Counted from the stretch's first letter, positions 6,560 to 63,772 are shown. The stretch: 64,000 bases of DNA from an uncultured Bacilli bacterium (GCA_934100165.1 CAKOPN010000005.1:33804-97803); one strand, 5' to 3'. The notes: generated from the letters alone by a model not told the origin. Numbers and translations are program-made.

Positions 6560-6595
6560 AAAAAAACCTCTAGGAAATCCTAGAGGAATTTTTTA
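6560..6595. terminator. Bidirectional Rho-independent terminator shared by the convergent GH3 and clpB genes
   Basis: Hairpin CCTCTAGG-aaat-CCTAGAGG flanked by A-run and T-run. Confidence 0.6.
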
Positions 6596-8704
6596 TCTTT
6601 CAATATATAATTCATTATCTTTAACACTTATAACTATATCATCACCATATTTGATTTCACCATTTATAATTGCTTTTGCTATTAGTGTTTCAATATTTCT
6701 TGATACAAATCTTTTAATTGGTCTAGCTCCATATTTTTCATCGTAAGAGTTTTCAATGATAAAGTCTCTAGCAGTATTTGTTAACATAATATTGATATTT
6801 TTATCTGTAAGTCTCTTGTTGATATCATTTATAATCTTATCAAGTATTTTGTAAACAGTATCCTTCTTAAGTGCTTTAAATATGATTATTTCATCAATTC
6901 TATTCAAAAATTCTGGTTTGAATGTTCTCTTTAATTCATCCATTACAAGTGTATTAGAATTATCTAAGTTATCAAGAATGTATTCACTACCAAGGTTAGA
7001 AGTCATGATTATAATAGTATTCTTAAAGTCTACAGTTCTTCCTTGTGAATCAGTTATTCTGCCATCATCAAGTATTTGAAGTAATATGTTGAAAACATCT
7101 TTATGAGCTTTCTCAATTTCATCAAATAGGACTATACTGTAAGGGTTTCTTCTAACAGCTTCAGTTAATTGTCCACCATCATCATAACCAACATATCCTG
7201 GAGGAGAACCAATTAGTCTTGCAACAGAATGGCTTTCCATGTATTCACTCATATCAATTCTAATCATATGACGTTCATCATCAAAAAGTTCATATGCAAG
7301 TGTTTTAGCAACTTCTGTTTTACCAACACCAGTAGGTCCAAGGAATATAAATGAACCAATTGGTCTGTTTGGATCTTTGATACCACTTCTAGCACGGATT
7401 ATTGCATCACTTACTAGTTTTATGGCATCATCTTGTCCCATAACACGTTTTTTCATGTTGGATTCTAGATTTAAAAGTTTCTCTCTTTCTTCGCCAACAA
7501 GTTTGCTTATAGGAATATTGGTCCATTTAGAGATAATAGCTGCAATACTTTCTTCATCGATAGTATCACTTAATATTTCGTTTTTGTTTTGAGCTTCTAG
7601 ATTACGAAGTTCTTTTTCGAGTTCTGGAATAACACCATGTTTAAGTCTAGCTGCCTCTTCTAAGTCATAAGTATCTTCAGCTCTTTCAAGCTCATGTTTC
7701 TTACGTTCAATTTCTTCTTTTTTCTTGTTAATTTTAGTGTTAATTTCTTTTTCACTTTCCCAGTCACTTTTTAACTTTCCTTGCTTTTCTTTTAATCCAA
7801 CAAGTTCACTATCAATTTCTTCAATTCTATGTTTTGAAAAATCATCTTTTTCTTTCTTTAAAGCTTCTTTTTCAACTTCTAGTTGCATAATGTTTCTTGT
7901 TAAAGTATCAAGTTCAGTAGGAACAGATTCCATTTGTACCTTTACAGTAGCACAAGCTTCATCAACTAGGTCAATAGCCTTATCTGGTAAAAATCTATTA
8001 GTAATATATCTATTAGATAGAGTAGCTGCCGCTACAAGTGCTTTATCTTTAATTGTAACTCCGTGGTAAACTTCAAATCTTTGCTTTAATCCACGTAGTA
8101 TTGTTATTGTATCAAGCACTGATGGTTCTTTTACTAACACTTGTTGAAATCTTCTTTCAAGTGCACTATCTTTTTCAATATATTTTCTATATTCATTTAA
8201 AGTAGTAGCGCCAATACAGTGTATTTCACCACGAGCAAGCATAGGTTTTAGCATATTACCAGCATCCATAGCACCTTCAGCACCACTTCCTACTATCATG
8301 TGAATTTCATCGATAAACATAATGATGTCACCATCAGAATCTTTAATTTCTTTTAGAACAGCTTTAAGACGTTCCTCAAATTCACCACGATATTTTGCAC
8401 CTGCAATAAGTGAACCCATATCTAGCTCCCAAATTGTTTTATTTTTAAGGCTGTTAGGTACATCACCTTTAACAATTCTTTGCGCAAGACCTTCAATAAT
8501 TGCAGTTTTACCAACACCAGCTTCACCAATTAAAACTGGGTTGTTTTTTGTTTTTCTAGACAAAATCCTAGTTATACTACGAATTTCATCATCACGGCCA
8601 ATTACAGGATCGATTTTTCCATCCTTAACGGCCTGTACTATATCACGACCATATTTCTCAAGAACATTTTCCAAATTTTCTTGATATGGATTTCTCTCAT
8701 TCAT
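6593..8704 (-). CDS. clpB: ClpB-type Hsp100 disaggregase lacking the N-terminal domain
   Basis: 703 aa with two AAA+ modules (Walker A GEAGVGKT and GPTGVGKT) and a long coiled-coil middle domain. It starts at the position equivalent to roughly residue 150-160 of full-length ClpB, so the N-domain is absent. This matches the short ClpB of Mollicutes. Confidence 0.85.
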
Positions 8705-8846: not shown

Positions 8847-9128
8847 ATGAAAAAAGTAACATTGTTAGAAAAAGAATATGAAATAATAAAAGATGAACAT
8901 AACTGCTTTGATTTACAAGAAGTAGAAGGTTTAATTACAGACTATTTTGAACCATATGACTATATTTTAGGGGACTATTCTTATGGAAAACTAAGATTGA
9001 AAGGTTATTATGATTCTAAAAGCAAAAAGAAAAATAAAGTAAACGATTATAGTAACATTGATACTTATATAAAAGAATATTGTTCTTTTAATTGCAAACA
9101 TTTTATTTTGAAAAAAGAAAAAGTATAA
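8847..9128 (+). CDS. YutD-like (DUF1027) small protein
   Basis: 93 aa. The YEIIKDEHNCFD...YDYILGDYSYGKLRLKGYYD pattern resembles the YutD family. Confidence 0.45.
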   Translation: MKKVTLLEKEYEIIKDEHNCFDLQEVEGLITDYFEPYDYILGDYSYGKLRLKGYYDSKSKKKNKVNDYSNIDTYIKEYCSFNCKHFILKKEKV

Positions 9129-16799: not shown

Positions 16800-17747
16800 A
16801 TGAATGTATTAGTTGTTAATAAACAAGAAGATGTAATATCAGCATTAAATATAGAAGTAATTAAAACATTACGTGGTGTTTTTGATGCAGATGAGATTAT
16901 AAGCACATTTACAAATTTCTATTTTGCAAGAATGATAATTGATGTAACAGCACTCAAAGATTATGAGGATGTTGCAATATATCAGAAATTGTCAATAGGT
17001 CTTCCAATAGATAAAGTAATACTTTTAATTCCATCATCTAGTGCTGCCGCAAACAATTACTTTTTATCAAAGTTAATTTCAATGGGATATTATAATTTTA
17101 CAACAAATGGTGATGGTGTTAAGTATTTACTTACAAATCCAAATTCCTACAAGGATGTTGCCTATTTACATCAGGTTGAAGCTCCTACCAATAATGTTGT
17201 TCCAACAGAAAATGGTGGTGCTGTATTAAGTGGAATAAGAATCCTAGGAGTTAAGAATGTAACTGATGAAGCAGGTTCATCATCGCTTATATATATGATG
17301 AAAAAGGAGCTTGAAGAGAAGTATAATCTTTCAGTTTTAGCTGTCGAAGTTGATAAAAGAGATTTCACTTTCTTTAGAAGCAAGGATATGATATCTACAG
17401 ATAAAACTTCTATTGCGACTGAGCTTCTTAAAGCTAAGAATTACAACTATATATTAGTTGATTTAAATGATTATGATGAAAATATATGTGATGAAACTTT
17501 ATACTTAATTGAACCATCAATAATTAAACTTAATAAACTAATGTTGAGGGACAAGGGTGTTTTTTCAAGATTAAGGGATAAAAAGGTTATAATAAACAGA
17601 TCAGTTTTGAATGAAGCTGATATTAAGGAATTTGCTTCAGAAGCGGGTATAAAAATATTTGATGTTATACCTTGCTTAAATGATAGAGAATTATCAAAAG
17701 AAATTTCTAGTTTACTTGTTAAACTTGGAATGGTTAAGAGTGTGTAA
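16800..17747 (+). CDS. Hypothetical cytoplasmic protein associated with the Tad-like locus (possibly a degenerate CpaE/TadZ-like protein)
   Basis: 315 aa with no TM. It sits where tadZ/cpaE would be, but has no canonical deviant Walker A. Function unassigned. Confidence 0.5.
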   Translation: MNVLVVNKQEDVISALNIEVIKTLRGVFDADEIISTFTNFYFARMIIDVTALKDYEDVAIYQKLSIGLPIDKVILLIPSSSAAANNYFLSKLISMGYYNFTTNGDGVKYLLTNPNSYKDVAYLHQVEAPTNNVVPTENGGAVLSGIRILGVKNVTDEAGSSSLIYMMKKELEEKYNLSVLAVEVDKRDFTFFRSKDMISTDKTSIATELLKAKNYNYILVDLNDYDENICDETLYLIEPSIIKLNKLMLRDKGVFSRLRDKKVIINRSVLNEADIKEFASEAGIKIFDVIPCLNDRELSKEISSLLVKLGMVKSV

Positions 17748-30174: not shown

Positions 30175-30238
30175 AAACTTGTTGACAAAAAATTATCAAA
30201 ATGATATATTAAATACTGTCAATGACGAAGTGCTATTC

Positions 30239-30315
30239 GGGCGATTAGCTCAGTTGGTTAGAGCACCTGCCTTACAAGCAGGGGGTCATAGGTTCGAGTC
30301 CTATATCGCCCACCA
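30239..30315 (+). tRNA. tRNA-Val (anticodon TAC)
   Basis: Cloverleaf GGGCGAT/ATCGCCC acceptor stem, D-arm GCTCAGTTGGTTAGAGC, anticodon loop CTTACAA, T-arm GGTTCGAGTCC, encoded CCA. Confidence 0.9.
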
Positions 30316-30325
30316 TATTTGTTGT

Positions 30326-30401
30326 GCCGAAATAGCTCAATTGGTAGAGCAACTGATTTGTAATCAGTAGGTTCCGGGTTCAAGTCCTGGTTTCGGCACC
30401 A
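30326..30401 (+). tRNA. tRNA-Thr (anticodon TGT)
   Basis: Acceptor GCCGAAA/TTTCGGC, anticodon stem ACTGA/TCAGT with loop TTTGTAA, T-arm GGTTCAAGTCC, encoded CCA. Confidence 0.9.
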
Positions 30402-30407
30402 TTTTTT

Positions 30408-30491
30408 GGAGAGGTAGCGAAGTGGCTAAACGCGGCAGACTGTAAATCTGTTCCTTCGGGTTCGATGGTTCGAATCCATCTCTCTCCACCA
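30408..30491 (+). tRNA. tRNA-Tyr (anticodon GTA), with long variable arm
   Basis: GGAGAGG acceptor, anticodon loop CTGTAAA, variable arm TCCTTCGGG, T-arm GGTTCGAATCC, encoded CCA. Confidence 0.85.
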
Positions 30492-30496
30492 CTTAT

Positions 30497-30571
30497 TGCC
30501 TCGTAGCCAAGTGGTAAGGCACGAGACTTTGACTCTCGCATGCGCTAGTTCGAATCTAGCCGAGGCAGCCA
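30497..30571 (+). tRNA. tRNA-Gln (anticodon TTG)
   Basis: TGCCTCG/CGAGGCA acceptor (U1-A72 as in Bacillus tRNA-Gln), anticodon loop CTTTGAC, T-arm AGTTCGAATCT, encoded CCA. Confidence 0.85.
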
Positions 30572-30578
30572 ATTTTGT

Positions 30579-30654
30579 GTTCCGTTAGCTCAGTTGGTAG
30601 AGCATTTGACTTTTAATCAAAGGGTCTGGAGTTCGAATCTCCAACGGGACACCA
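30579..30654 (+). tRNA. tRNA-Lys (anticodon TTT)
   Basis: GTTCCGT/ACGGGAC acceptor, anticodon loop CTTTTAA, T-arm GAGTTCGAATCTC, encoded CCA. Confidence 0.9.
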
Positions 30655-30789: not shown

Positions 30790-30832
30790 TGTCGAAAATA
30801 AAGGTATAAAAAAAATGATAACCTTTGTCGAA
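30790..30832 (+). promoter_or_regulatory. Two Spo0A-box-like heptamers TGTCGAA (30790-30796 and 30826-30832) upstream of spoIIAA
   Basis: Exact matches to the Spo0A 0A-box consensus TGTCGAA, 36 bp apart, 50-95 nt upstream of the spoIIAA GTG start. In B. subtilis the spoIIA operon is Spo0A-activated. Confidence 0.4.
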
Positions 30833-30884
30833 TACGTATAAAAAAAATAAATAATATTCTATATTAAATTAAAAGGAGGAACTT

Positions 30885-31223
30885 GTGTTACAAATTGAAA
30901 CAATATATAAAAAAGGAATTCTTTTTGTAAGATGTTATGGAGTAATAAATAAAGAAACAAAAAAAGAACTTGAAAAAACACTTGAAAGCGCCATAAATGA
31001 AGTTGGTATAAAATATTTGCTTTTAAACGTTGAAAATATTTACTATATAAATACAGAAATAGAATCCATAATAAAAAAATGGAGTACTATTTTAAGTAAA
31101 AAGGATGGAAAGTTCTTTATGTGTGGAAAAGAACAATTAAAAGAAACATATGATGTTGATAAAACAGAAAAAGTACTACAGATGACAGATGAATTTAGTG
31201 TATTTAAAATGATAAATATATAG
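30885..31223 (+). CDS. spoIIAA: STAS-domain anti-sigma-factor antagonist, SpoIIAA-like (divergent)
   Basis: 112 aa. It aligns along its length with SpoIIAA (IETIYKKGILFVRCYGVI..., YLLLNVENIYYIN..., FFMCGKEQLKE) and sits immediately upstream of sigF. The canonical phospho-acceptor DSSG loop reads NTEIES here. GTG start with a GGAGG RBS. Confidence 0.65.
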   Translation: MLQIETIYKKGILFVRCYGVINKETKKELEKTLESAINEVGIKYLLLNVENIYYINTEIESIIKKWSTILSKKDGKFFMCGKEQLKETYDVDKTEKVLQMTDEFSVFKMINI

Positions 31224-31224
31224 G

Positions 31225-31917
31225 GTGATAAAATTGGAAAGAGAAGAAATCGCATTATTATGTAAAAAGCTTGTATATTCTATAGCAAGAAAATATAGTA
31301 AAAGTGAATCTGATTTGGAAGACTTATATCAAGTAGGAAATGTTGGACTTTCAAAGGCAATGGCTAATTACAAAGAAGGAAAAAATGCCAAATTTTCAAG
31401 TTATGCTCATTTTTATATTGAAGGAGAAATTTTAAAATACATAAGAGAAAACAAGCCTATAAAAGTTAATAATAATTTAACAAGATTAAATAGAGACATA
31501 ACAAGAGCTAAAGAGTATTTACTGCAAACATATATGAGGGAACCAACGATAGAGCAAATTGCACTTTTCCTTGATAAAACACCACAAGAAATAGAAGACG
31601 CTATTACAAGTTCATTATCAGTAAAAAGTCTTGACTATGAACTTAATGCTGAAGAAGAAGGAAAAGATGTTAACTTATATGACTATTCTTCTTATATTGA
31701 AAAAGGTTATGATGAAGATATTTTAACAGTAAGAGAAGAAATAAGAAAACTAGATCCAAAAGAAAGACGAATTATAATTTCTAGATATTATGAAGATAAA
31801 AGTCAAAACGAAACATCTAAAGAGTTAGGTATGAGTCAAGTTCAACTTTCTAGAACAGAGACAAAAATACTAGCAAAAATAAGAAATAATATTGGACCAT
31901 ACTGTGTAAAGGTATAA
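31225..31917 (+). CDS. sigF: Sporulation sigma factor, SigF-like (sigma-70 family, SigF/SigG/SigB clade)
   Basis: 230 aa. Region 2 (DLYQVGNVGLSKAMANY...FSSYAHFYIEGEILKYIRE) and region 4 (LGMSQVQLSRTETKILAKIR) are closely similar to B. subtilis SigF. The context spoIIAA-sigF-spoVAC/D/E matches the Bacillus and Clostridium spoIIA-spoVA neighbourhood. Confidence 0.75.
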   Translation: MIKLEREEIALLCKKLVYSIARKYSKSESDLEDLYQVGNVGLSKAMANYKEGKNAKFSSYAHFYIEGEILKYIRENKPIKVNNNLTRLNRDITRAKEYLLQTYMREPTIEQIALFLDKTPQEIEDAITSSLSVKSLDYELNAEEEGKDVNLYDYSSYIEKGYDEDILTVREEIRKLDPKERRIIISRYYEDKSQNETSKELGMSQVQLSRTETKILAKIRNNIGPYCVKV

Positions 31918-34812: not shown

Positions 34813-34865
34813 AAACATTTGTTTTTGAAAGGTATGTATAGTATAATACTATTGGTGATAAGAAA

Positions 34866-35183
34866 ATGAATATAAGTATAGAATATGTAATTATAGGAAT
34901 AATCCTTTTAGTGGTGTTACTAGCAGTTTTAAAAGCTGGGAAGAAAGATGTTCACCTAGAACTAAATAAATTGGTAGACTATCTTGGTGGAAAAGATAAT
35001 ATTGTGTCAACAGAGACGAATTTATCTAGATTTAAAGTAACTCTTAAAGATGTTTCGAAAGCAAATAAAGATGCTATAACAAAGTTAGGAGCTAAAGGAA
35101 TTGTAGAAATTGGTAATGAACTAAAAATTATTTTGGGACCAAATTCAAAGCAGTTGAAAAAGTATATAGATAACCTAAAATAA
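34866..35183 (+). CDS. Membrane-anchored PTS EIIB(Glc)-like domain protein lacking the phosphorylatable Cys
   Basis: 105 aa. An N-terminal TM is followed by LVDYLGGKDNIVSTETNLSRFKVTLKD...GAKGIVEIG, which aligns with the EIIB_glc fold. The Cys of the CATRLR motif appears replaced (TNLSRF). Confidence 0.45.
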   Translation: MNISIEYVIIGIILLVVLLAVLKAGKKDVHLELNKLVDYLGGKDNIVSTETNLSRFKVTLKDVSKANKDAITKLGAKGIVEIGNELKIILGPNSKQLKKYIDNLK

Positions 35184-35210
35184 TTCAAAATACAACAACA
35201 AAAACCAAAA

Positions 35211-35227
35211 TTCGACAAAATTCGACA
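35211..35227 (-). promoter_or_regulatory. Two tandem Spo0A-box-like heptamers (TTCGACA on the + strand, i.e. TGTCGAA on the - strand) at 35211-35217 and 35221-35227, upstream of the orphan histidine kinase gene
   Basis: Exact 10-bp direct repeat TTCGACAAAA x2, 40-55 nt upstream of the kinase ATG at 35268. Each unit contains the reverse complement of the 0A-box consensus. Confidence 0.4.
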
Positions 35228-35267
35228 AAATGAATTCATATAATTGTTACTGAAAGAAGGTAATTAT

Positions 35268-36416
35268 ATGAATTTTTTTATTGAGTTAATTAAGTATTTA
35301 ATACTAACATTATTCCCACTTTTTCTGTACAAGTCATTTGAAGGATATGATAAGGATAAAAATGCATTGTTGAATATCCTTATCGCGTCATCTTTTTTAG
35401 TTGCAGTAATTTTTCTTAATGATATATATTTTATAATTTTTCTTTATGTACCTTATTATATTTGTTATATCAAAAAGAAAAAACTACTTGGAACACTGGT
35501 TTTAATTTCATCTATTGTGTTTTTATACAATTCTTATGGAATTTCAATATATCTTTTAATATTACAATTTATATCATTCTTAGTGTTGCTTTTTATAAAT
35601 AAAAAAGAATATCTATTTCTAACATTTTCAACATATTTTTATTCACTTGAAGTATTTATTTATGTATCAAATAATGTAAATTTTATTTACATGGTATTAC
35701 TAGCACTAATAACGTGTTTAATATATATTTTAATTGAAGATTTTATTCTAGTAAGTAAGTATCAACAACTAGAAAAAACTTACAATGCTTATTTATTTAA
35801 ATTTATTCATGAAATAAAAAATCATTTATCAATTTGTAAGGGATATTTAGAGATGTATAAGAGTAAAAATAGTAAGAATAAAAAAGACTACTTAGAGCAT
35901 GTAACAAAGTCAATAAATGAGTCTTTGGACATTATGGAAGATTATCTTTTGTATGGAAGATATAATGTTCAGTTTGATTACTTAGATGCAAATCTTCTTT
36001 TAAATGATGTATACAATGATTTTAAAAGTTTATATGATGGAAAAAATGTTGATATAGATTTTAATTACAATGAAGATGAAATTTTTATAAAAGGTGATTA
36101 CAATAAATTAAAACAGGTTTTGGTTAATATAATAAAAAATGGTATTGAAGCTAAAAAGGATAAAAAAAGGGCCCAAATAAGGCTTAGTATAGATAAAACA
36201 AATTCTAATGTAATTATAGAAATTAAAGATAATGGTATTGGAATTAAGAATTTAGATAAGTTAGGTAATGAATTTTATACTACTAAAAACTATGGTACTG
36301 GATTAGGGGTAAGTTTTTCTAAACACATAATAGATCTTCATAATGGTGATATAAAATATATATCTAATAAAGATGGTACAACTGTCAAAATATCATTACC
36401 AATTCAAAATATCTAA
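35268..36416 (+). CDS. Orphan sensor histidine kinase with polytopic N-terminal membrane domain
   Basis: About 382 aa from the ATG at 35268 (GAAGG RBS). About 6 TM helices, H-box FIHEIKNHLSICKGYLEMY, and HATPase_c N, G1 and G2 boxes (IIKNGIEA, IKDNGIGI, GTGLGVS). No response regulator gene is adjacent. Confidence 0.75.
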   Translation: MNFFIELIKYLILTLFPLFLYKSFEGYDKDKNALLNILIASSFLVAVIFLNDIYFIIFLYVPYYICYIKKKKLLGTLVLISSIVFLYNSYGISIYLLILQFISFLVLLFINKKEYLFLTFSTYFYSLEVFIYVSNNVNFIYMVLLALITCLIYILIEDFILVSKYQQLEKTYNAYLFKFIHEIKNHLSICKGYLEMYKSKNSKNKKDYLEHVTKSINESLDIMEDYLLYGRYNVQFDYLDANLLLNDVYNDFKSLYDGKNVDIDFNYNEDEIFIKGDYNKLKQVLVNIIKNGIEAKKDKKRAQIRLSIDKTNSNVIIEIKDNGIGIKNLDKLGNEFYTTKNYGTGLGVSFSKHIIDLHNGDIKYISNKDGTTVKISLPIQNI

Positions 36417-37019: not shown

Positions 37020-37712
37020 ATGATTTATTCACAAGAAGTGGAAAATATGTGCAAAGTTACTAAAGGTGCAGATCATGGACCAGCACCAATTCCAGAAGAA
37101 GGAAAATGGGTAAAAGCAAAAGAGATTAAAGATATTTCAGGACTTACTCATGGTATTGGTTGGTGTGCACCACAACAAGGGGCATGTAAATTAACACTTA
37201 ATATTAAAAATGGAATTATAGAGGAAGCTTTAGTAGAAACTGTTGGATGTTCAGGTATGACTCACAGTGCAGCAATGGCTAGTGAAATACTTGTTGGAAA
37301 AACTATTTTAGAAGCTCTTAATACAGATTTAGTGTGTGATGCAATAAATACTGCTATGAGAGAATTATTCTTACAAATAGTATATGGAAGAAGTCAATCT
37401 GCATTCTCAGAAAATGGTCTTCCAATTGGAGCAGGATTAGAAGATTTAGGAAAAGGACATAGAAGTCAAGTTGGAACATGTTACAGTACTAAAGTCAAAG
37501 GGCCTAGATATCTAGAACTATCTGAAGGATATATAACAGATATAGCACTTGATAAAAATGATGAAATCATTGGTTACAAATTTGTTAATCTTGGAAAAAT
37601 GATGGAAAATATCAAAAAAGGTATTGAACCAAAAGAAGCAATTGAAAAAGCAAGTGGAAAATATGGAAGGTTCGATGAAGCTGTAAAAGTTATCGATCCA
37701 AGAGAGGAGTAG
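37020..37712 (+). CDS. NifU/IscU-like domain protein
   Basis: 230 aa. The N-terminal segment GIGWCAPQQGACKLTLNIKNGIIEEALVETVGCSGMTHSAAMASEILVGKTILEA has the IscU/NifU N-domain pattern, including the conserved Cys positions. AGGAGG RBS. Confidence 0.55.
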   Translation: MIYSQEVENMCKVTKGADHGPAPIPEEGKWVKAKEIKDISGLTHGIGWCAPQQGACKLTLNIKNGIIEEALVETVGCSGMTHSAAMASEILVGKTILEALNTDLVCDAINTAMRELFLQIVYGRSQSAFSENGLPIGAGLEDLGKGHRSQVGTCYSTKVKGPRYLELSEGYITDIALDKNDEIIGYKFVNLGKMMENIKKGIEPKEAIEKASGKYGRFDEAVKVIDPREE

Positions 37713-37716
37713 TAAA

Positions 37717-38715
37717 ATGGCACTTTTTGAAAGTTATGAAAGAAGAATTAAACAAATAGAAAAGAAGTTAAAAGAATATGGAATCAAATCACTTGATGAA
37801 GCTAAAGCTATTTGTGATGACAAAAATATAGATGTATTTAAAATCGTAAGAGGTATTCAACCAATTTGTTTCGATAACGCATGTTGGGCATATACAGTAG
37901 GAGCAGCTCTTGCAATTAAATCAAATGTAAAAACAGCAAAAGAGGCAGCAGAAAAAATAGGTGAAGGTCTACAATCATTCTGCATACCTGGTAGTGTTGC
38001 AGATGATAGAAAAGTTGGACTAGGACATGGGAACTTAGGAGCAATGTTATTATCAGAAGATACAGAATGTTTTGCCTTCTTAGCAGGACATGAATCTTTT
38101 GCAGCAGCAGAAGGTGCTATTGGAATTGCTAATTCAGCTAACAAAGTAAGAAAGAAACCATTAAGAGTAATATTAAATGGATTAGGAAAAGATGCTGCAC
38201 AGATTATCTCTAGAATAAATGGATTTACTTATGTAAAAACAGAGTTTGACTACTACACAGGAAAACTTAAAATAGTAAGTGAAACACCATATTCAAAGGG
38301 TGAAAGAAGCAAAGTTAAATGTTATGGAGCAGACGATGTTAGAGAAGGTGTTGCTATAATGCATCATGAAAAGGTTGATGTATCAATTACTGGTAACTCT
38401 ACTAACCCTACAAGATTTCAACATCCAGTTGCAGGTACATACAAGAAAGAATGTAACGAAATGGGTAAAAAGTACTTCTCAGTTGCATCAGGTGGTGGAA
38501 CAGGAAGAACACTTCACCCAGACAATATGGCAGCAGGACCAGCTTCTTATGGTATGACTGATACAATGGGAAGAATGCATAGTGATGCACAGTTTGCAGG
38601 AAGTTCAAGCGTACCAGCCCATGTTGAAATGATGGGACTAATTGGTATGGGAAATAACCCAATGGTTGGAGCTACTGTAGCAGTTGCTGTCGCTATTGAA
38701 GAAGCAATGAAATAA
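37717..38715 (+). CDS. GGGtGRT-family protein
   Basis: 332 aa. It contains the family-defining motif SVASGGGTGRTLHP and a Gly/Ala-rich C-terminal region. It is adjacent to the NifU-like gene with a 4-nt gap. Confidence 0.6.
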   Translation: MALFESYERRIKQIEKKLKEYGIKSLDEAKAICDDKNIDVFKIVRGIQPICFDNACWAYTVGAALAIKSNVKTAKEAAEKIGEGLQSFCIPGSVADDRKVGLGHGNLGAMLLSEDTECFAFLAGHESFAAAEGAIGIANSANKVRKKPLRVILNGLGKDAAQIISRINGFTYVKTEFDYYTGKLKIVSETPYSKGERSKVKCYGADDVREGVAIMHHEKVDVSITGNSTNPTRFQHPVAGTYKKECNEMGKKYFSVASGGGTGRTLHPDNMAAGPASYGMTDTMGRMHSDAQFAGSSSVPAHVEMMGLIGMGNNPMVGATVAVAVAIEEAMK

Positions 38716-38848: not shown

Positions 38849-39526
38849 ATGAAAATACTCGTTGTGGATGATGAAAAACTTATAAGAGAAGTAATTTGTG
38901 AGTATGCAAGGAATGAAGGCTACAGTGTAATAGAAGCTGAAAATGGGGATGACGCAATAAATAAGGTTACAGAAAATCCTAACATTGATTTAATAATCAT
39001 GGATATAATGATGCCTAAATTAGATGGTTATAGCGCTTGTAAAGAAATATTTAAAATAAAGAAATATCCAACGATAATGCTTTCTGCAAGAAAAGAAGAG
39101 TATGACAAACTTTTAGGCTTTGATCTTGGAATTGATGATTATGTTACTAAACCTTTTAGTCCAAAAGAACTTATGGCTAGAATAAAGGCTGTATTAAACA
39201 GAAGTAAAAAAGGCTTTGATGATGAAGATATATACAAATACAAAACACTTGAAGTAAATAAAAGAGCACATACAGTAAAAGTAGAATCAAAAGAAGTTAA
39301 ACTTACTCCAAAAGAGTATGAATTACTACTTTATTTTATTTCAAATAAAGGTATTGCCTTATCTCGTGAACAGCTTTTAGCAAGTATTTGGGGATATGAT
39401 TTCTTTGGTGATGATAGAACTGTTGATACACATATTAAAATGTTGAGAAATTCACTTGGAAAATATAGAGATTTGATAGTAACAGTAAGATCAATGGGGT
39501 ATAAGTTTGAAACAGATGAAAAATAA
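38849..39526 (+). CDS. OmpR-family response regulator
   Basis: 225 aa. Receiver domain (MKILVVDDEKLIRE...DLIIMDIMMPKLDG) and winged-helix C-terminus (LTPKEYELLLYF...TVRSMGYKF). Confidence 0.9.
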   Translation: MKILVVDDEKLIREVICEYARNEGYSVIEAENGDDAINKVTENPNIDLIIMDIMMPKLDGYSACKEIFKIKKYPTIMLSARKEEYDKLLGFDLGIDDYVTKPFSPKELMARIKAVLNRSKKGFDDEDIYKYKTLEVNKRAHTVKVESKEVKLTPKEYELLLYFISNKGIALSREQLLASIWGYDFFGDDRTVDTHIKMLRNSLGKYRDLIVTVRSMGYKFETDEK

Positions 39527-40892
39527 ATTAGGGTTTAAAATATGGCTTTACTTAATAGCATTCTCAGTTGCTATTTTACTTCTTTTATGGTGCTTTCAAA
39601 TATTGTCTTTAAAGGATTATTATGAATTTTCTACAAAAAAAGAAATAAGTAAGACCGTAGAAAAAGTTAAAAAGCTTTACAATGATCCTAATTATGCTGA
39701 TTATTTTGATAAGTTATCTTATGATAATGATATGTGTATAGAGTTATATGATGGTATTGTTAGAGTGTATTCATCTTTCAGTTGTACTTCAACTGCAATA
39801 GAATTTAGTAGAGAGAAAAAAGCATTTATAAAAGCCGATATTACATCCCAAGGCTATGAAGTAAGTAATGGTTTAGATGATAAAGTGCTTTTATATGGTA
39901 TTGAATTAGATGATAATAAATATGCTTTTATTCAAGCTTCACTAATTCCAGTTGATTCAACAGTTAGTATCCTAAAAAAGCAATTACTTTTTGTCTCTTT
40001 CTTCACTTGTGTTTTATCTGTATTAGTCGCATATTTTATATCCAGAAAAATATCTAAACCAATTGAAGATATAAATGATAATGCTAAAAAGTTGTCAAAA
40101 GGAATATATGATGTAAAGTTTGATGAGAATAGTACTGTACAAGAAATAAATGAACTAAATAAAACTTTAAATTATACAAGTAGTGAACTTGCTAAAACAG
40201 AAAATCTAAGAAGAGAACTTTTGGCCAACGTTTCTCACGATTTGAAAACGCCTCTTACAATGATAAAAGCATATGCAGAAATGGTAAGAGACTTGACATA
40301 CAATAACAAAGAAAAAAGAGAGAGCAATTTGAATGTAATTATAACTGAAAGTGATAGATTAAATTTATTAGTAAATGATATTTTGGATTTGTCAAAATAT
40401 CAGTCAGGAAGTATAAAACTTGAATATGAAACTTTTGATTTGGTTTCTTTTATAAAAGATATCACAAAAAGATATGATATTTATGAAGAAAAAAATGGTT
40501 ATGATATAACTTGTAAATGTAAAGGTCATATATATGTAAATGCTGATAAAAAACGACTTGAGCAAGTAATGTATAATTTAATAAATAATGCGATAAATTA
40601 TACTGGTGATGATAAAAAGGTTTACGTGTTTGTAAGAGAAGAAAATGATAAGGTTAGAGTAGAAGTTAAAGATACTGGTAAAGGTATCAAAGAAGAAGAT
40701 TTACCACTTATCTGGGATAAATATTATAAAGCGGATAAAACATATTCAAGAATTACTGTAGGAACAGGAATTGGTCTTTCAATAGTTAAAAATATTTTAA
40801 TGTTACATAAATTGAATTATGGTGTAGAAAGCACAGTTAATGAGGGAACAACTTTCTATTTTGAACTTCAAGTAGTTAAAAAGCCTGAATAA
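39507..40892 (+). CDS. Sensor histidine kinase, cognate to the upstream OmpR-family regulator
   Basis: 461 aa. Two TM helices flank a ~130-aa extracellular loop, followed by a HAMP-like region, H-box LLANVSHDLKTPLT, and N, G1 and G2 boxes (LINNAINYT, VKDTGKGI, GTGIGLS). It overlaps the regulator gene by 20 nt. Confidence 0.85.
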   Translation: MKQMKNKLGFKIWLYLIAFSVAILLLLWCFQILSLKDYYEFSTKKEISKTVEKVKKLYNDPNYADYFDKLSYDNDMCIELYDGIVRVYSSFSCTSTAIEFSREKKAFIKADITSQGYEVSNGLDDKVLLYGIELDDNKYAFIQASLIPVDSTVSILKKQLLFVSFFTCVLSVLVAYFISRKISKPIEDINDNAKKLSKGIYDVKFDENSTVQEINELNKTLNYTSSELAKTENLRRELLANVSHDLKTPLTMIKAYAEMVRDLTYNNKEKRESNLNVIITESDRLNLLVNDILDLSKYQSGSIKLEYETFDLVSFIKDITKRYDIYEEKNGYDITCKCKGHIYVNADKKRLEQVMYNLINNAINYTGDDKKVYVFVREENDKVRVEVKDTGKGIKEEDLPLIWDKYYKADKTYSRITVGTGIGLSIVKNILMLHKLNYGVESTVNEGTTFYFELQVVKKPE

Positions 40893-57212: not shown

Positions 57213-57233
57213 GCTTTGTTAGGTGGTGAAATA

Positions 57234-60200
57234 ATGAATAACTCTACAAACAACACAAACCCAAATACAAACAATAGTGCACAAAACAACAATACAACCA
57301 AAAGACAAAAGATTAACTTAAATATGAACGACTATCTAAAAAAGCAAGCAATGCGAAAATTAGATGATAATAGATTCTCATCAAAATTAAGAGAAGCAGT
57401 GGAAAAAAATAAAAATAAAAATGCCAAAAAAGCCCTAAAAAACAATATTGGTAATTTTGCTTCTCCATTAGAAAGTGCTGTTGTTAAATCAAAATTAGCA
57501 GCAGGCGGTGGAGAAGAATATATAGATACTGTAAAGAATGCAAGCAATGAAATGGAAGGCGTTGCTAAAGTTGCAGCAAAGATCAAACTCAAAGGTAAAC
57601 TAATTAAAGTTGGTTTAATAATTGGTGGAATTGCTCTTGCAGTACTTTTTGTAATCGCTTTAATTACATCAATTTTCAAAAATGCTGATTCACAAATATA
57701 TAGTAATGTTAATGATGGAAAAATAGATCCTGAACAGTACCCAGACAATGACTTAATAAATCCAAATGTCTTTGTAAAATACCCAGGAATATACGAAAAA
57801 GTAGAAGCGGCAGCTAGAAAAGTTGGAAGCCAGTATAAAGTAGACATAGATAGATATTTAATTTTAGCTACTTTAATCGCTCCACTTGAAAATGAAAATA
57901 TAGTACCTGTTTCTGATGAAAGCTGCGGAGAAACGGACTGTTACTATCTTAAAGGGGAAAGCTACACATGGACTGAATTTTTGGAAAGATGGGGAGATCA
58001 AGCTGAATATTTAGCAAAAGCTCAGATACTAACTTATGTAAATAAAAGTTCAGATATAAAAGTAACTTGTGGAAAAGATCAGACAATGGAACAATATGCC
58101 CAAAATGACTTAGAAGTAAATGATTTTAATTTTTGGAAACTTTTCAACCCAGCTAACTGGTTTAAAGGTTTTAGAGATGCGACAGGAGCAGAACTTAATG
58201 CTAAATGCATATATGATGTTGAAGCAGGTGAGTCAAGAATCCCTACAATATATGTTCTGTCAAAAGATCAAGGAATATACTATAACGATATAAATGCCGA
58301 TGGAGAACGTACTTTTGTAAAAGATCCAAACAGTGGGGGAGTATACTTCTGGAATCTTGTTAATAATGGCGGATTTATTCATGTATATTTTGGAGACTAT
58401 CTGAACATTAATGAGAATGCTACAGATGATCAAAATTATGAACAAAACCTTTCTACTATCCTTGACATAGCAAACTATATTTATTCTTATTATGAATCAA
58501 TTAGAAAAGATTGTGAAGGATATTTGCTTATTGAGAGTACAATTGAAACAATAAATATGAGTCAACCAGGTGGTGGGGTATATACTCTTCCTCTTGACCA
58601 ATATATTGGTGGTGTAGTATTAGCAGAAATAGGATACAATGACAATATAGAAACAATTAAAGCATTTGCAACTCTTGCAAGAAGTTATGCTATAAGTGTT
58701 GTAGGATTAGATGGAAGTGGTACTATTGAAAATAGTAGTAATAACCAAAATTATAGCTGGAATTACACACCAGAAAAATATCCAAGAATAGCCCAGGCTG
58801 TTGAAGAAACGAAAGGTTTCGTATTAACACACTATGGGCAAGCTTCAGTAATTAGAAGTAGTTATGATGCATTTTGTCCTACGACTAGTGAGCCTATAAA
58901 TGACTTTTATTATTTACCAGATGGACAAAATAATATTCCAATTAGTCTTGAAAGTTATAGAAAAAAAACAGGACATGAATTCACTGTAAAAGAAAAATAC
59001 TTAAAATGCCCATGTTTCCAAAACGAAAGTAGTAGACCTAATAATGTAAGTTTTGGTGGTAAAAAAGTAAGATTTGCAACGTCTCCAAATAATCCACCAA
59101 CGGAAGCAGCTGGATCACCTAGACAAACAACGGATGCAGAATGCTGGACATACACAGGAAGTTCAAGAATAAATTCTTTAACACAAGCAACTGAATATGC
59201 TTGGACTTATAAAGCAACAGGTGGACATGGTAGAGGAGCAAGCCAAGTTGGACTTTCATATTATGGAATGTTTGGTTATGAATGGGAAGCTTTAATAAGA
59301 ATGTTCTATACTGATTCAACAATAAAGAGATTATCATCTTCTCTTGAAGAAGGAGAATGTCAAAATGCATCATACTATAAAGGAGAAACTGGTTCTACTG
59401 GTTCAACTACAATTGAAGCTTGTGGAGCAACATTTGAAAGCAATGGCGGAAATTATACAAAACGTATAAGTGGAAATCCTCTAAATTCTCCATTAACAGA
59501 TGCCCTTGATAGTAAAGGATATAGTATTGAATGTTTAAATAGTTGCATAGAGCAAAGAGTAAGCGCTGCTGGAATTGGTACTAGATATGGTACATCAGAA
59601 GCTGCTGTAGCACTTCTTGAGTGTACAATGGAAATGACAGGTGGCTTTACTTATCCTTATGACCATCGTGGCGGATACACTCCAAGAAACCCTGATATAG
59701 CTGGACAAACAGGTGTTAACTCAAGATGGGGAGAATATGAATCATGGGCTACTGGATGCGGTTCAAGTAAATGTCGTTTGGGCCTTAACTGTGCTAACTT
59801 TGTTAGATGGTCAATGTGTAATGGAGGAAGAAGTGATTTCTGTAATAGTAGAAGACAAGACACGTTTGCAACTGGAATAACAGGCGTAAACTCTGATACA
59901 GAATACTTCCCTGGAGCAGTTAGATTATATTTATCAGGTAGAAGTCACTTCTCAGTATCACCAAATGTTACTATTGGTGATTTAAGTAGTAGTTACCAGC
60001 AAAAATTTAGTAGCTTATATTCAACAAGTACTGCTCTTACTTCTGTAGATATAGACAAAGTATTATCACTAATTCAACCAGGAGACGTACTATATTCAGA
60101 CGTTAATGGTGGATCAAACCATGCTATGATGATAATTGGCGTTGAAGATTCTGCAATTTGGATAGCAGAAAATGGAAGAAAAACGCGTATGATTACTTAT

Positions 60201-60266
60201 GATGATTTAAAGTCAGGTAGTAAAAACTATGTCGTACTTTTACTAGATGGATATTACGAATCATAA
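57234..60266 (+). CDS. Membrane-anchored multi-domain cell-wall hydrolase: SpoIID/LytB-like domain plus C-terminal NlpC/P60- or CHAP-type papain-fold peptidase (VirB1 functional class)
   Basis: About 1010 aa from the ATG at 57234 (AGGTGGTGA RBS). Asn-rich N-terminus and a single TM (LIKVGLIIGGIALAVLFVIALITSIF). The SpoIID/LytB signature is LDQYIGGVVLAEIGYNDNIETIKAFATLARSYAI. The C-terminal Cys/His pair (GLNCANFVRWSMCNGG and GGSNHAMMIIG) is typical of NlpC/P60 or CHAP peptidases. Confidence 0.6.
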   Translation: MNNSTNNTNPNTNNSAQNNNTTKRQKINLNMNDYLKKQAMRKLDDNRFSSKLREAVEKNKNKNAKKALKNNIGNFASPLESAVVKSKLAAGGGEEYIDTVKNASNEMEGVAKVAAKIKLKGKLIKVGLIIGGIALAVLFVIALITSIFKNADSQIYSNVNDGKIDPEQYPDNDLINPNVFVKYPGIYEKVEAAARKVGSQYKVDIDRYLILATLIAPLENENIVPVSDESCGETDCYYLKGESYTWTEFLERWGDQAEYLAKAQILTYVNKSSDIKVTCGKDQTMEQYAQNDLEVNDFNFWKLFNPANWFKGFRDATGAELNAKCIYDVEAGESRIPTIYVLSKDQGIYYNDINADGERTFVKDPNSGGVYFWNLVNNGGFIHVYFGDYLNINENATDDQNYEQNLSTILDIANYIYSYYESIRKDCEGYLLIESTIETINMSQPGGGVYTLPLDQYIGGVVLAEIGYNDNIETIKAFATLARSYAISVVGLDGSGTIENSSNNQNYSWNYTPEKYPRIAQAVEETKGFVLTHYGQASVIRSSYDAFCPTTSEPINDFYYLPDGQNNIPISLESYRKKTGHEFTVKEKYLKCPCFQNESSRPNNVSFGGKKVRFATSPNNPPTEAAGSPRQTTDAECWTYTGSSRINSLTQATEYAWTYKATGGHGRGASQVGLSYYGMFGYEWEALIRMFYTDSTIKRLSSSLEEGECQNASYYKGETGSTGSTTIEACGATFESNGGNYTKRISGNPLNSPLTDALDSKGYSIECLNSCIEQRVSAAGIGTRYGTSEAAVALLECTMEMTGGFTYPYDHRGGYTPRNPDIAGQTGVNSRWGEYESWATGCGSSKCRLGLNCANFVRWSMCNGGRSDFCNSRRQDTFATGITGVNSDTEYFPGAVRLYLSGRSHFSVSPNVTIGDLSSSYQQKFSSLYSTSTALTSVDIDKVLSLIQPGDVLYSDVNGGSNHAMMIIGVEDSAIWIAENGRKTRMITYDDLKSGSKNYVVLLLDGYYES

Positions 60267-61171: not shown

Positions 61172-63772
61172 ATGAAATTACGTATTGTAGCTAGTTCAAG
61201 AGATTTGATAATATTTGCTATATTTGCAGTATTTTTATTATATGTAGTGGCACTTGGAGTATTAAATTTGCCACAGTTAGCAGGGGAGGGAACTTTCTAT
61301 GGATTAAATCCAATAGAAGCGTTTTCAAGTGATTATATACTCTTTACAGTTGTATTTTATCTTTTAGCCTTAGGTGGTCTTATTATGAGTGTAAGCTCAT
61401 ATTTCTTTGAATGGGAATCTGGCTTTGGTTTTGGAGTTTCATCTGGTAGCAAAGGTGGATATTCAGACTGGGCAAAAGCAAAAGATATAAAAGAAGATAC
61501 AAACATTAAGAAAGTTAATGCAAGTGATCATACTTCTAAGTATGCAGGTGTTCCTCTTATTTGTAATGGTAAAGAGTTATGGGTAGATGATGGAGCATAT
61601 CATACACTTGTTATAGGTGCTACTGGTAGTGGTAAAACTCAGAGTACCATCTTACCTACAATGAAAATCCTTGCTAAAAAGGGTGAATCAATTATTTGTA
61701 CAGACCCAAAAGGTGAGTTATATGAAAAAACTGGTGGATTATTAAAAGAAAAAGGATATAACGTAATATTATTAAACTTCCGTAATCCTCAAAATGGTAA
61801 TGCTTGGAACCCACTTGCACTTCCATATAGACTTTATAAAAGCGGTAATCAAGATAAAGCTATTGAGTTACTAGATGACTTAGCTTTGAATATACTTTAT
61901 GATGAAAGTTCATCAAATGCCGACCCATTTTGGGAAAAAACAGCAGCAGATTATTTTGCAGGTATTGCTCTTGCTATGTTTGAAGATACTACTGAAGATA
62001 AAATCAATATAAATAGTATTAACATGACAGCAACTGTTGGTGAAGACAGGTTTGGTGGTTCAACTTATATTAAAGAGTATTTTAACTATAAAGATCCTAG
62101 CAGTGCAGCATATGTTAATGCAAGTGGTACTGTTATGGCACCAAGTGATACAAAGGGTGGTATAATTTCTGTATTTAAACAGAAAGTAAAACTTTTTGCA
62201 TCACGTGAAAACTTATCAGAAATGTTAAGTTATAGTGATTTTGATCTAGATTCAATTGGTAAAAGACCAACAGCAGTATTTATAATTATTCAAGATGAAA
62301 AGAAGACATACCATTCACTTGCTACAATCTTTATTAAACAAGCTTATGAAACTTTAATCGATGTAGCACAGTCAAATGGCGGAAAACTTCCATATAGAAC
62401 TAACTTCTTACTAGATGAGTTTGCTAACATGCCACCACTTAAAGACGTTACAACAATGATAACAGCAGCTCGTTCTAGACAAATAAGATTTACAATGATA
62501 ATCCAGAACTTTGCACAGTTAAACAAAATATATGGAAAAGATGATGCTGAAACAATAAAAGGTAACTGTGGTAACATAGTTTATTTGATTTCAACAGAAC
62601 TTGCTGCACTAGAAGAAATAAGCAAACTTTGTGGTGAGAAAAAATCAAAGAAAGATGATAAAACAGCATCAACACCTCTAGTTACTGTAAGCGACTTACA
62701 AAGAATGAAACAGTTCGACCAAATAATCTTACGTATGAGAAAAAATCCATTTAAAACATCATTTGTACCAGACTTTAAAATTGACTGGGGAAGCGAAACA
62801 TCTCCAAAAGTTGATTATCCACTAAGAGAGAAGAAAAAAGTAAATATATTCGATATTAGAGATTTTGTTAAAGAAAAGAAAAATCAAAAAATAAATGAAA
62901 TGATGGCAAGCATGTCTGATGGAGATAAAGGTGGATCTACAGCAAAGAAAGATCCATTCCAACAAATGCCTAGAGATCCTTTCCGAAGACCAATGTATAA
63001 TTCACCAGAAGGAAGAATGCCAAAAGAAAACAGTGATTTAGATACAAAACCGAAACCAAATATATCTGTTAGCGATCTAGTTAAGAAAATAGACCAAAAA
63101 TTAGCGGAAATTGAAAAAGAAGAATCAGAAAATAAAGCTAACAAGAAAGAACCAGTACCTGTAAAGAAGGAAGAAAAGAAATATTCTATTGATGACTTCT
63201 TAATGCAACAGGAAGAGAAAAAAGAAATCCAAAAAAATAAGAGTGTACAATATACTCCTTCAAAATCTTTTGATGAAAAGACAAAAGATAGTAAATCTTT
63301 TAATAAAGATATAGAACTTTTATCTGAATATGAAAAAGAAAAAAATGACAAAAAGGAACCTAAAAAAGAGAAGGAATATGTCTACATTGATAGTGATTCT
63401 GACTTATTTGCGCCAATTCTTGATAAAACAGATGAAGATAGAATAGAAAAAGAAATGAAAAAAGATGCTCCTTCAATAGATTTAACTGATGATATGATAA
63501 TGGATGTTGATAATCAGTTAAAAAATACTAAATTTGAAGAAGACAATATTGATATGGGTTTATTTGATTTAGATGATGATATAACTCCAAAAACTGAGGA
63601 TATTGTAATAGAAGAAAGAAAAGAACCTGAAGAAATCAAACAAGAGCAAGAGAAGAAAGAAGCTCCTGTTGAAAGAAAGGAACCAGAAGAAATCTTTAAG
63701 CCAACTCCAACAATTAAACTTGATGATGTTAAAGATGATGATAACTTCTTTGATGATTTCTTCGATGATTAA
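61172..63772 (+). CDS. VirD4/TraG-family type IV coupling protein ATPase with ~250-aa acidic C-terminal tail
   Basis: 866 aa. Two N-terminal TM helices, Walker A LVIGATGSGKTQS, the FLLDEFANMPPL motif, the RSRQIRFTMIIQNFAQL motif, and a highly acidic, Lys/Glu/Asp-rich tail ending DDDNFFDDFFDD. Confidence 0.8.
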   Translation: MKLRIVASSRDLIIFAIFAVFLLYVVALGVLNLPQLAGEGTFYGLNPIEAFSSDYILFTVVFYLLALGGLIMSVSSYFFEWESGFGFGVSSGSKGGYSDWAKAKDIKEDTNIKKVNASDHTSKYAGVPLICNGKELWVDDGAYHTLVIGATGSGKTQSTILPTMKILAKKGESIICTDPKGELYEKTGGLLKEKGYNVILLNFRNPQNGNAWNPLALPYRLYKSGNQDKAIELLDDLALNILYDESSSNADPFWEKTAADYFAGIALAMFEDTTEDKININSINMTATVGEDRFGGSTYIKEYFNYKDPSSAAYVNASGTVMAPSDTKGGIISVFKQKVKLFASRENLSEMLSYSDFDLDSIGKRPTAVFIIIQDEKKTYHSLATIFIKQAYETLIDVAQSNGGKLPYRTNFLLDEFANMPPLKDVTTMITAARSRQIRFTMIIQNFAQLNKIYGKDDAETIKGNCGNIVYLISTELAALEEISKLCGEKKSKKDDKTASTPLVTVSDLQRMKQFDQIILRMRKNPFKTSFVPDFKIDWGSETSPKVDYPLREKKKVNIFDIRDFVKEKKNQKINEMMASMSDGDKGGSTAKKDPFQQMPRDPFRRPMYNSPEGRMPKENSDLDTKPKPNISVSDLVKKIDQKLAEIEKEESENKANKKEPVPVKKEEKKYSIDDFLMQQEEKKEIQKNKSVQYTPSKSFDEKTKDSKSFNKDIELLSEYEKEKNDKKEPKKEKEYVYIDSDSDLFAPILDKTDEDRIEKEMKKDAPSIDLTDDMIMDVDNQLKNTKFEEDNIDMGLFDLDDDITPKTEDIVIEERKEPEEIKQEQEKKEAPVERKEPEEIFKPTPTIKLDDVKDDDNFFDDFFDD

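Follow-up and report, generated by a model that had tools for sequence, protein, structure and literature searches.

The window analyzed here, a stretch of 64,000 nucleotides from an uncultured Bacilli bacterium (GCA_934100165.1 CAKOPN010000005.1:33804-97803), carries an orphan histidine kinase gene preceded by a tandem pair of 0A boxes, the recognition motif of the sporulation regulator Spo0A. This arrangement raises the question of which protein reads the boxes, whether they drive or silence the kinase gene, and whether the kinase in turn serves Spo0A. Judged from sequence comparison, there is strong support for the tandem boxes being a conserved, position-fixed promoter element. We tentatively favor, at somewhat under an even chance, a loop of direct positive feedback whereby Spo0A~P activates the kinase promoter, which has no -35 element, and the kinase feeds Spo0A; here we infer the binding of Spo0A, the activation and the final destination of the phosphoryl group on Spo0A. 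The kinase gene and its promoter comprise the following elements:

35211-35217, plus strand: distal 0A box, reading TTCGACA along the coding strand (minus strand, TGTCGAA) and covering roughly -40 to -34 relative to the inferred start of transcription.
35221-35227, plus strand: proximal 0A box TTCGACA, covering roughly -30 to -24; it follows the distal box at a distance of exactly 10 bp, with 11 nt left to the -10 hexamer.
35239-35244, plus strand: sigma-A type -10 hexamer TATAAT, without a -35 partner at 16-18 bp spacing.
35252-35260, plus strand: ribosome-binding site GAAAGAAGG, 7 nt before the kinase ATG.
35268-36416, plus strand: orphan polytopic histidine kinase of 382 aa, with about 6-7 transmembrane segments, a HisKA domain (H181, codon 35808-35810) and a HATPase_c domain.

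The 0A boxes, of 7 bp, were defined either by the loose core TGNCGAA or by the strict form TGTCGAA. A preliminary description of this DNA had claimed a 10-bp direct repeat of 0A-box complements upstream of the kinase, and this was confirmed, the repeat being slightly longer than claimed: it spans 35207-35230 and consists of two copies of AAAATTCGAC plus AAAA. TTCGACA, which complements the strict box exactly, is present in each copy, and the two boxes lie head-to-tail in a 7-3-7 layout, with a start-to-start spacing of 10 bp. The 20-mer TTCGACAAAATTCGACAAAA (35211-35230, plus strand) occurs only once in the window, even when two mismatches are allowed, and is absent from all shuffled sequences. 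The strict TGTCGAA was found five times in the window, twice in the kinase promoter, twice in the promoter of a spoIIAA-like/sigF-like operon and once within a gene. The intragenic copy (17342-17348), inside a 315-aa open reading frame (ORF; 16800-17747), most likely arose by chance. A cluster of loose TGNCGAA matches at 30223-30392 was rejected because the matches fall in tRNA genes; a cluster of five such genes (Val, Thr, Tyr, Gln, Lys) occupies 30239-30654, flanked by an S1-domain gene on one side and by the spoIIA-like promoter on the other.

The kinase promoter combines a good -10 and a missing -35 with a factor site at a set distance from the -10, the layout of an activator-dependent class II promoter, and a consensus scan called no sigma-70-type promoter that uses the kinase TATAAT. 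Two other assignments were tried and discarded. A sigma-H or sigma-K promoter lacks a properly spaced AGGA -35 and has the wrong AC-to-CATA spacing, and the proximal box, which reads TTTGACA in some relatives, cannot be taken as a -35 element, since it lies 11 nt from the -10 and not 16-18.

Whether the motif is kept in orthologous promoters or is absent from relatives was one of the points on which the preliminary description had asked to be judged. We examined 80 loci from 80 different species-level genomes, fetched by means of an alignment between the kinase and its homologues, whose orthologous kinases are only 30-45% identical to the window kinase. The strict TTCGACA was found on the coding strand upstream of the kinase in 76 of the 80 loci, mostly about 40-70 bp before the start codon, and the exact tandem pair in roughly 35 of them. 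The density of strict boxes was 5.4 per kb in the 250 bp upstream of the kinases compared with 0.036 per kb in the other 838 kb, i.e., an enrichment of about 150-fold. The fit of the layout covered 78 promoters, and 74 of them obey the order box, 3 nt, box, gap, -10. This layout and the enrichment over flanking DNA show that the tandem repeat is not due to chance, which the preliminary description had called unlikely, and absence of the repeat from relatives, which was to refute its reading, is not what the loci show.

Among the 74 fitting promoters, 62 leave a gap of 11 nt between box and -10, and another 7 leave one of 12 nt. A distal box free of mismatches is found in 65 of them. For the proximal box this holds in 36, with a single mismatch in 23 and more degenerate forms in the remaining 15, and 43 have a perfect -10. 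The stretch between the -10 and the ATG is free to vary, from about 4 to 74 nt. When the orthologous promoters were aligned on the boxes, only the second box and the -10 appeared conserved, and the other intergenic DNA did not; the conserved core is exactly TTCGACA and does not include the A-tract. Ribosome-binding sites resembling GGAGG or GGTGA are found at the same place in the orthologues, and the promoter is unchanged in conspecific metagenome contigs. In 77 of the 78 promoters, the best -35 match at 16-18 bp spacing reaches at most two of six positions and the canonical TGn-extended -10 is missing as well.

As to the host, the kinase homologues come from uncultured gut metagenome-assembled genomes (MAGs) labelled Bacilli, Tenericutes, Mollicutes or Mycoplasmatota, together with Clostridium sp. 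CAG:710 and CAG:914, and the GC content is about 29%. The identical kinase cluster is also carried by a contig of 1.27 Mb. The source is probably an uncultured Bacilli member with a reduced genome, similar to RF39. Given these homologues, the clostridial-type sporulation setting assumed by the preliminary description was not borne out, and with a non-clostridial host both a direct and a phosphorelay route to Spo0A are possible.

A second promoter of the window contains strict boxes and belongs to the following operon:

30790-30832, plus strand: promoter region of the spoIIAA-like/sigF-like operon with its pair of strict TGTCGAA boxes, at 30790 and at 30826.
30885-31223, plus strand: SpoIIAA-like STAS gene, followed by a SigF-like sigma factor gene at 31225-31917.

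The spoIIA operon is a canonical target of Spo0A. The proximal box of the window promoter ends 27 nt upstream of TATATT (30860-30865), and a strict TGTCGAA ends exactly 27 nt upstream of a -10-like hexamer in the three genomes that capture the operon (the window, L064 and L011). A further box, rated weaker, lies about 36 bp upstream, and that of the window, at 30790, is a strict TGTCGAA. No spoIIAB is present between the SpoIIAA-like gene, which ends at 31223, and the SigF-like gene, which starts at 31225. The same is on record for order RF39, from which spoIIAB and spoIIE are largely missing although the order is predicted to sporulate (PMC10868615), and one may ask what keeps sigma F inactive.

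To find spo0A in the lineage, metagenome contigs were scanned for the recognition helix RVERAIRHAIE encoded in AT-rich codons. The scan yielded a distinct low-GC Spo0A subfamily (...AIEVSWNRG...), and the recognition-helix peptide SRVERAIRHAIE is intact in the Spo0A of the lineage. One of its proteins, P0275, has both domains (PF00072 and PF08769) intact, and public MAGs contain many relatives of it under the name 'sporulation transcription factor Spo0A [Bacilli bacterium]'. A strict TTCGACA lies within 220 bp upstream of spo0A in 27 of 28 low-GC relatives, in the same orientation as in the kinase promoter, and in 10 of 26 the box is 21 +/- 1 nt from the -10, i.e., with the kinase-type geometry. 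Moreover, the spo0A gene of L137/L217 is preceded by the identical 20-mer TTCGACAAAATTCGACAAAA. L137 derives from a fairly close relative of the window species, as suggested by its Clp ATPase, 80.6% identical over 551 aa to the window protein encoded at 6593-8704. The exact 0A-box core and the occurrence of the same 7-mer at the spoIIAA-sigF and spo0A promoters point to Spo0A as the protein to which the kinase boxes would belong.

Some additional features of these spo0A loci deserve mention. The spo0A gene of L137 contains an in-frame TAA (9008-9010), and the otherwise identical P0275 is intact (100% with a leucine-substituted query); the stop is either an assembly error or the mark of a strain with inactivated spo0A. 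In the lineage, spo0A consistently comes next after tpiA (pgk, glycosyltransferase, tpiA, spo0A; L217-L253), an order that differs from the spoIVB-spo0A linkage of Bacillus and Clostridium. An imperfect palindrome such as CTAGATAAnnTTTnnnCTAG(A) directly follows TTCGACA at spo0A of L104, L107, L137/L217, L181, L196 and L140, and it could be the operator of a second regulator.

The repeat could also be bound by another regulator, or it could be a structural element, such as phased A-tracts or a UP-like element, that resembles 0A boxes by coincidence. Many response regulators bind direct repeats of 10-11 bp, and a tblastn search of the window and the 80 kinase loci with the B. subtilis Spo0A matched receiver domains only and gave no spo0A. 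However, conservation of the TTCGACA core and not of the A-tract argues against a structural element, the inverted orientation of the 7-mer at spoIIAA-sigF rules out that the kinase motif is a sigma -35 element, and the presence of the 7-mer upstream of spo0A in nearly all the relatives, together with the intact recognition helix, argues for Spo0A. We therefore consider a different binder or a structural element very improbable.

Regarding the kinase itself, its mechanical ORF begins at a TTG (35244), but the ATG at 35268 is a better start because of the ribosome-binding site 7 nt upstream and the alignment with the MNF... N-termini of the homologues. Residues 1-165 form about six or seven hydrophobic segments with very short loops, and this membrane domain does not match any Pfam family. 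The HATPase_c domain scores 73 bits and the HisKA domain 21.6 bits, below the cut-off of 26.9. In an alignment of 28 homologues, H181, the N box (N287/N291), the G1 box (D321-G325) and the G2 box (G343-G347) are invariant, as are E182 and N185 of the H box. The H box (35808-35828) reads HEIKNHL in the window species and HE(I/V)KNP(I/L) in more than 90% of the homologues, so that the near-invariant proline that follows it is replaced by a histidine in the window species and close strains. Among solved structures, the Geobacillus sporulation kinase B (3D36) is the second-best relative of the core (E = 7.7e-20), and the catalytic core is about equally similar to Geobacillus KinB and to Thermotoga ThkA.

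The orphan status of the kinase, also claimed before, was confirmed in the window, because the only nearby regulator has its own kinase, and no response regulator is syntenic with the kinase in the 80 related loci:

38849-39526: OmpR-type response regulator, the nearest to the kinase, with its own HAMP kinase at 39507-40892.

In contrast, the sporulation neighborhood in which the kinase had been placed is not conserved, and the only syntenic neighbor is the gene directly upstream:

34819-34847, plus strand: sigma-A promoter of the EIIB-like gene itself (TTGTTT, 17 nt, TATAAT).
34866-35183, plus strand: EIIB(Glc)-like gene directly upstream of the kinase, encoding 105 aa with one N-terminal transmembrane helix.

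This EIIB-like gene adjoins the kinase in 70 of the 80 loci and its product is conserved at 55-81% identity, far above the 30-45% of the kinase. The protein matches PF00367 with 31.9 bits (cut-off 27) and also the EIIB regions of glucose-family EIIBC transporter models, and its family, with 6421 database hits, is annotated only as 'PTS transporter subunit EIIB' (PTS, phosphotransferase system). Unlike the EIIB(Glc) domains of the PTS, it is a stand-alone protein anchored by one helix, without EIIC and without the cysteine: the phospho-cysteine position is not Cys in the window copy or in any of the 70 orthologues. At the position aligned to C-x-T-R-L-R, a motif that we place according to what we take to be its consensus, there is N, E, K or M, and (L/M/K)-S-R-F comes next. 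Co-regulation of this gene by 0A boxes was rejected, since a strict box was found upstream of it in only 3 of 69 loci.

In the window, the kinase is followed by a NifU_N-like protein of 230 aa and a GGGtGRT-family protein (PF14057, 660 bits), encoded at 37020-38715, and the same pair follows the kinase in the nearest relatives, L001 (93% identity) and L223-L227. In L222, two CotZ-like spore-coat genes (1025-1804) are located just upstream of the EIIB-like/kinase pair, which is further evidence that kinase-carrying genomes belong to spore-formers. Near the right end of the window there are genes for a 1016-aa SpoIID-domain protein (57216-60266) and for a TraG/VirD4-type coupling protein of type IV secretion (61172-63772), the latter hinting at a conjugative element.

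How might the boxes and the kinase work together? In the positive loop that we favor, the 20-mer would be a high-affinity tandem operator for Spo0A~P that replaces the -35 of the sigma-A promoter of the kinase, and Spo0A~P, bound as a head-to-tail dimer across roughly -40 to -24, would recruit or reposition RNA polymerase. Transcription of the kinase would then rise once some Spo0A~P exists, and the kinase would pass phosphate to Spo0A, directly or via a relay, closing the loop. Since no terminator was predicted in the window between the EIIB-like gene and the kinase, basal kinase might be supplied by read-through of the EIIB-like gene. A good -10, no -35 and a stereospecific tandem site for a response regulator are the signature of class II activation.

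Several observations weigh against this loop. A circuit in which kinase synthesis itself depends on Spo0A~P requires a basal source, and in several relatives a hairpin plus T-run lies just upstream of the boxes. Among the Spo0A and kinase loci compared, which share neighbor genes, no locus, contig or MAG was found to hold both Spo0A and the kinase, and this adds to the failure of tblastn, reported above, to find spo0A in the window and in the kinase loci. The remaining objections concern the sign of the regulation and the target of the kinase, and each of them supports a different reading.

Firstly, Spo0A~P might bind the tandem boxes and repress the kinase, as a negative feedback or as a just-in-time shut-off after commitment. 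The operator, at about -40 to -24, lies inside the RNA polymerase footprint and can equally well occlude the enzyme, and the best-known case of perfect boxes in tandem 7-3-7 layout is the repressed abrB promoter, of which they are the hallmark. The box of the lineage's spoIIA-like promoters, which are presumably activated, lies at -46 to -40 and has the opposite orientation to the kinase boxes. Repression would also have precedents, since Spo0A blocks polymerase binding at phage promoters (PMC2731898) and modelling of B. subtilis spo0A gives mostly repressive effects of its boxes (PMC12090719). Nevertheless, a repressed promoter must work unaided, and 77 of the 78 promoters lack both the -35 and the canonical extended -10. 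In addition, however far the genomes have diverged, the spacing between box and -10 stays constant to within +/-1 bp, suggesting a stereospecific contact and not simple occlusion. The same design is found at the spo0A promoters of the lineage, where a purely negative autoregulation would be hard to square with sporulation, and this favors activation. Altogether, we regard repression as an unlikely reading, although one to be taken seriously.

Secondly, the promoter might be controlled by Spo0A and the kinase might serve another orphan regulator, for stationary phase or envelope functions, or act mainly as a phosphatase of Spo0A~P or Spo0F~P, like PtpA-C of C. difficile. The kinase does not reach the cut-off of any NCBIfam sporulation-kinase model (KinD is the best, with 88 bits vs 775), and its best NCBIfam match overall is AtoS (131 bits vs a cut-off of 646). 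It also keeps the H-E-x-x-N motif, with E182 and N185 invariant, which we assume to support HisKA phosphatase activity. Several clostridial orphan 'kinases' inhibit sporulation, and their deletion raises it (Table 1 in PMC11210211); according to the same review, no domain feature predicts the role of such proteins (PMC11210211). On the other hand, the promoter architecture is common to the kinase and spo0A, and the kinase has a KinB-type architecture with a DHp/CA core that resembles KinB. It is conserved across a lineage that has a minimal sporulation gene set and no recognized sporulation kinase: in a survey, no KEGG-recognizable sporulation sensor kinase was found in the related Erysipelotrichales (PMC10868615), which leaves the role of sporulation kinase vacant in the group. 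A function away from Spo0A phosphorylation thus seems to us about as unlikely as repression, and the positive loop remains the reading that we prefer, with the caution stated at the outset.

A broader proposal, which we hold to be doubtful and offer with more reserve than the loop itself, concerns the EIIB-like/kinase pair. The pair may be the sporulation-initiation sensor of uncultured, genome-reduced gut Bacilli (RF39-like and related orders), which lack recognizable KinA-E genes and in which the Spo0A-box promoter shared with spo0A would constitute a minimal two-gene positive-feedback switch and the Cys-less EIIB would couple carbohydrate or PTS status to the kinase. As a hypothesis by analogy with KapB, which assists KinB, the EIIB-like protein might assist the kinase as accessory subunit or act as a co-sensor.

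Each of the ingredients, i.e., Spo0A boxes, sporulation kinases without a partner regulator and feedback that acts on kinase expression, is already known. In B. subtilis, Spo0A~P raises the expression of kinA and kinB, and the level of kinase is the limiting, feedback-controlled quantity (PMC3269414). That loop is indirect, since Spo0A~P represses abrB, which leads to more sigma-H for kinA and to the de-repression of kinB (PMC3269414). Both systems feed the master regulator back on kinase transcription, but here consensus operators lie inside the core promoter of the kinase and the loop would be direct, without delay. The kinase also resembles known orphan polytopic enzymes, i.e., KinB (five transmembrane segments, HisKA, HATPase) and CPR1953 of C. 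perfringens (eight transmembrane segments, HisKA, HATPase) (Table 1 in PMC11210211). Like them, the window kinase lacks a PAS or extracellular domain. It has no equivalog-level similarity, however, and its candidate partner is a pseudo-EIIB and not KapB or KbaA, the partners of KinB.

The operator can likewise be compared with well-characterized sites. It shares with abrB the TGTCGAA box and the tandem 7-3-7 head-to-tail layout, but the abrB boxes are located downstream of the transcription start, where they repress. The activator boxes of spoIIG and spoIIE fall on the -35 region of sigma-A promoters without proper -35 spacing; those boxes are weak and centered near -40, whereas here both are perfect and reach -24. 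The pho box, which ends 10 bp from the -10, offers another parallel, in that a pair of direct repeats, each of about 10-11 bp, overlaps the -35 or stands in for it, with a placement like that of the kinase boxes. PhoB sites overlap the -35 and yet activate, PhoB and sigma region 4 binding together (PMC3348028). This likeness is one of geometry only, since PhoB is a winged-helix protein and Spo0A has a helix-turn-helix. In the available literature we found no report of 0A boxes at the promoter of a sporulation kinase gene, and no consensus tandem Spo0A operator that acts as the core promoter of a sporulation-type kinase, is shared with spo0A and is conserved throughout an uncultured lineage.

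The trigger of sporulation is poorly understood for most gut spore-formers beyond a few Bacillus and Clostridium models. This analysis nominates a widely conserved candidate kinase and its putative partner protein for the start of sporulation in genome-reduced gut Bacilli, and it makes a precise cis-regulatory prediction, i.e., that a Spo0A~P dimer would sit at -40 to -24 of a promoter without -35. The promoter design shared with spo0A provides a sequence signature to map the Spo0A regulon in unculturable MAGs. If true, a direct positive loop would be simpler than the AbrB/sigma-H loop of B. subtilis and would predict a sharper, switch-like commitment to sporulation in these bacteria.

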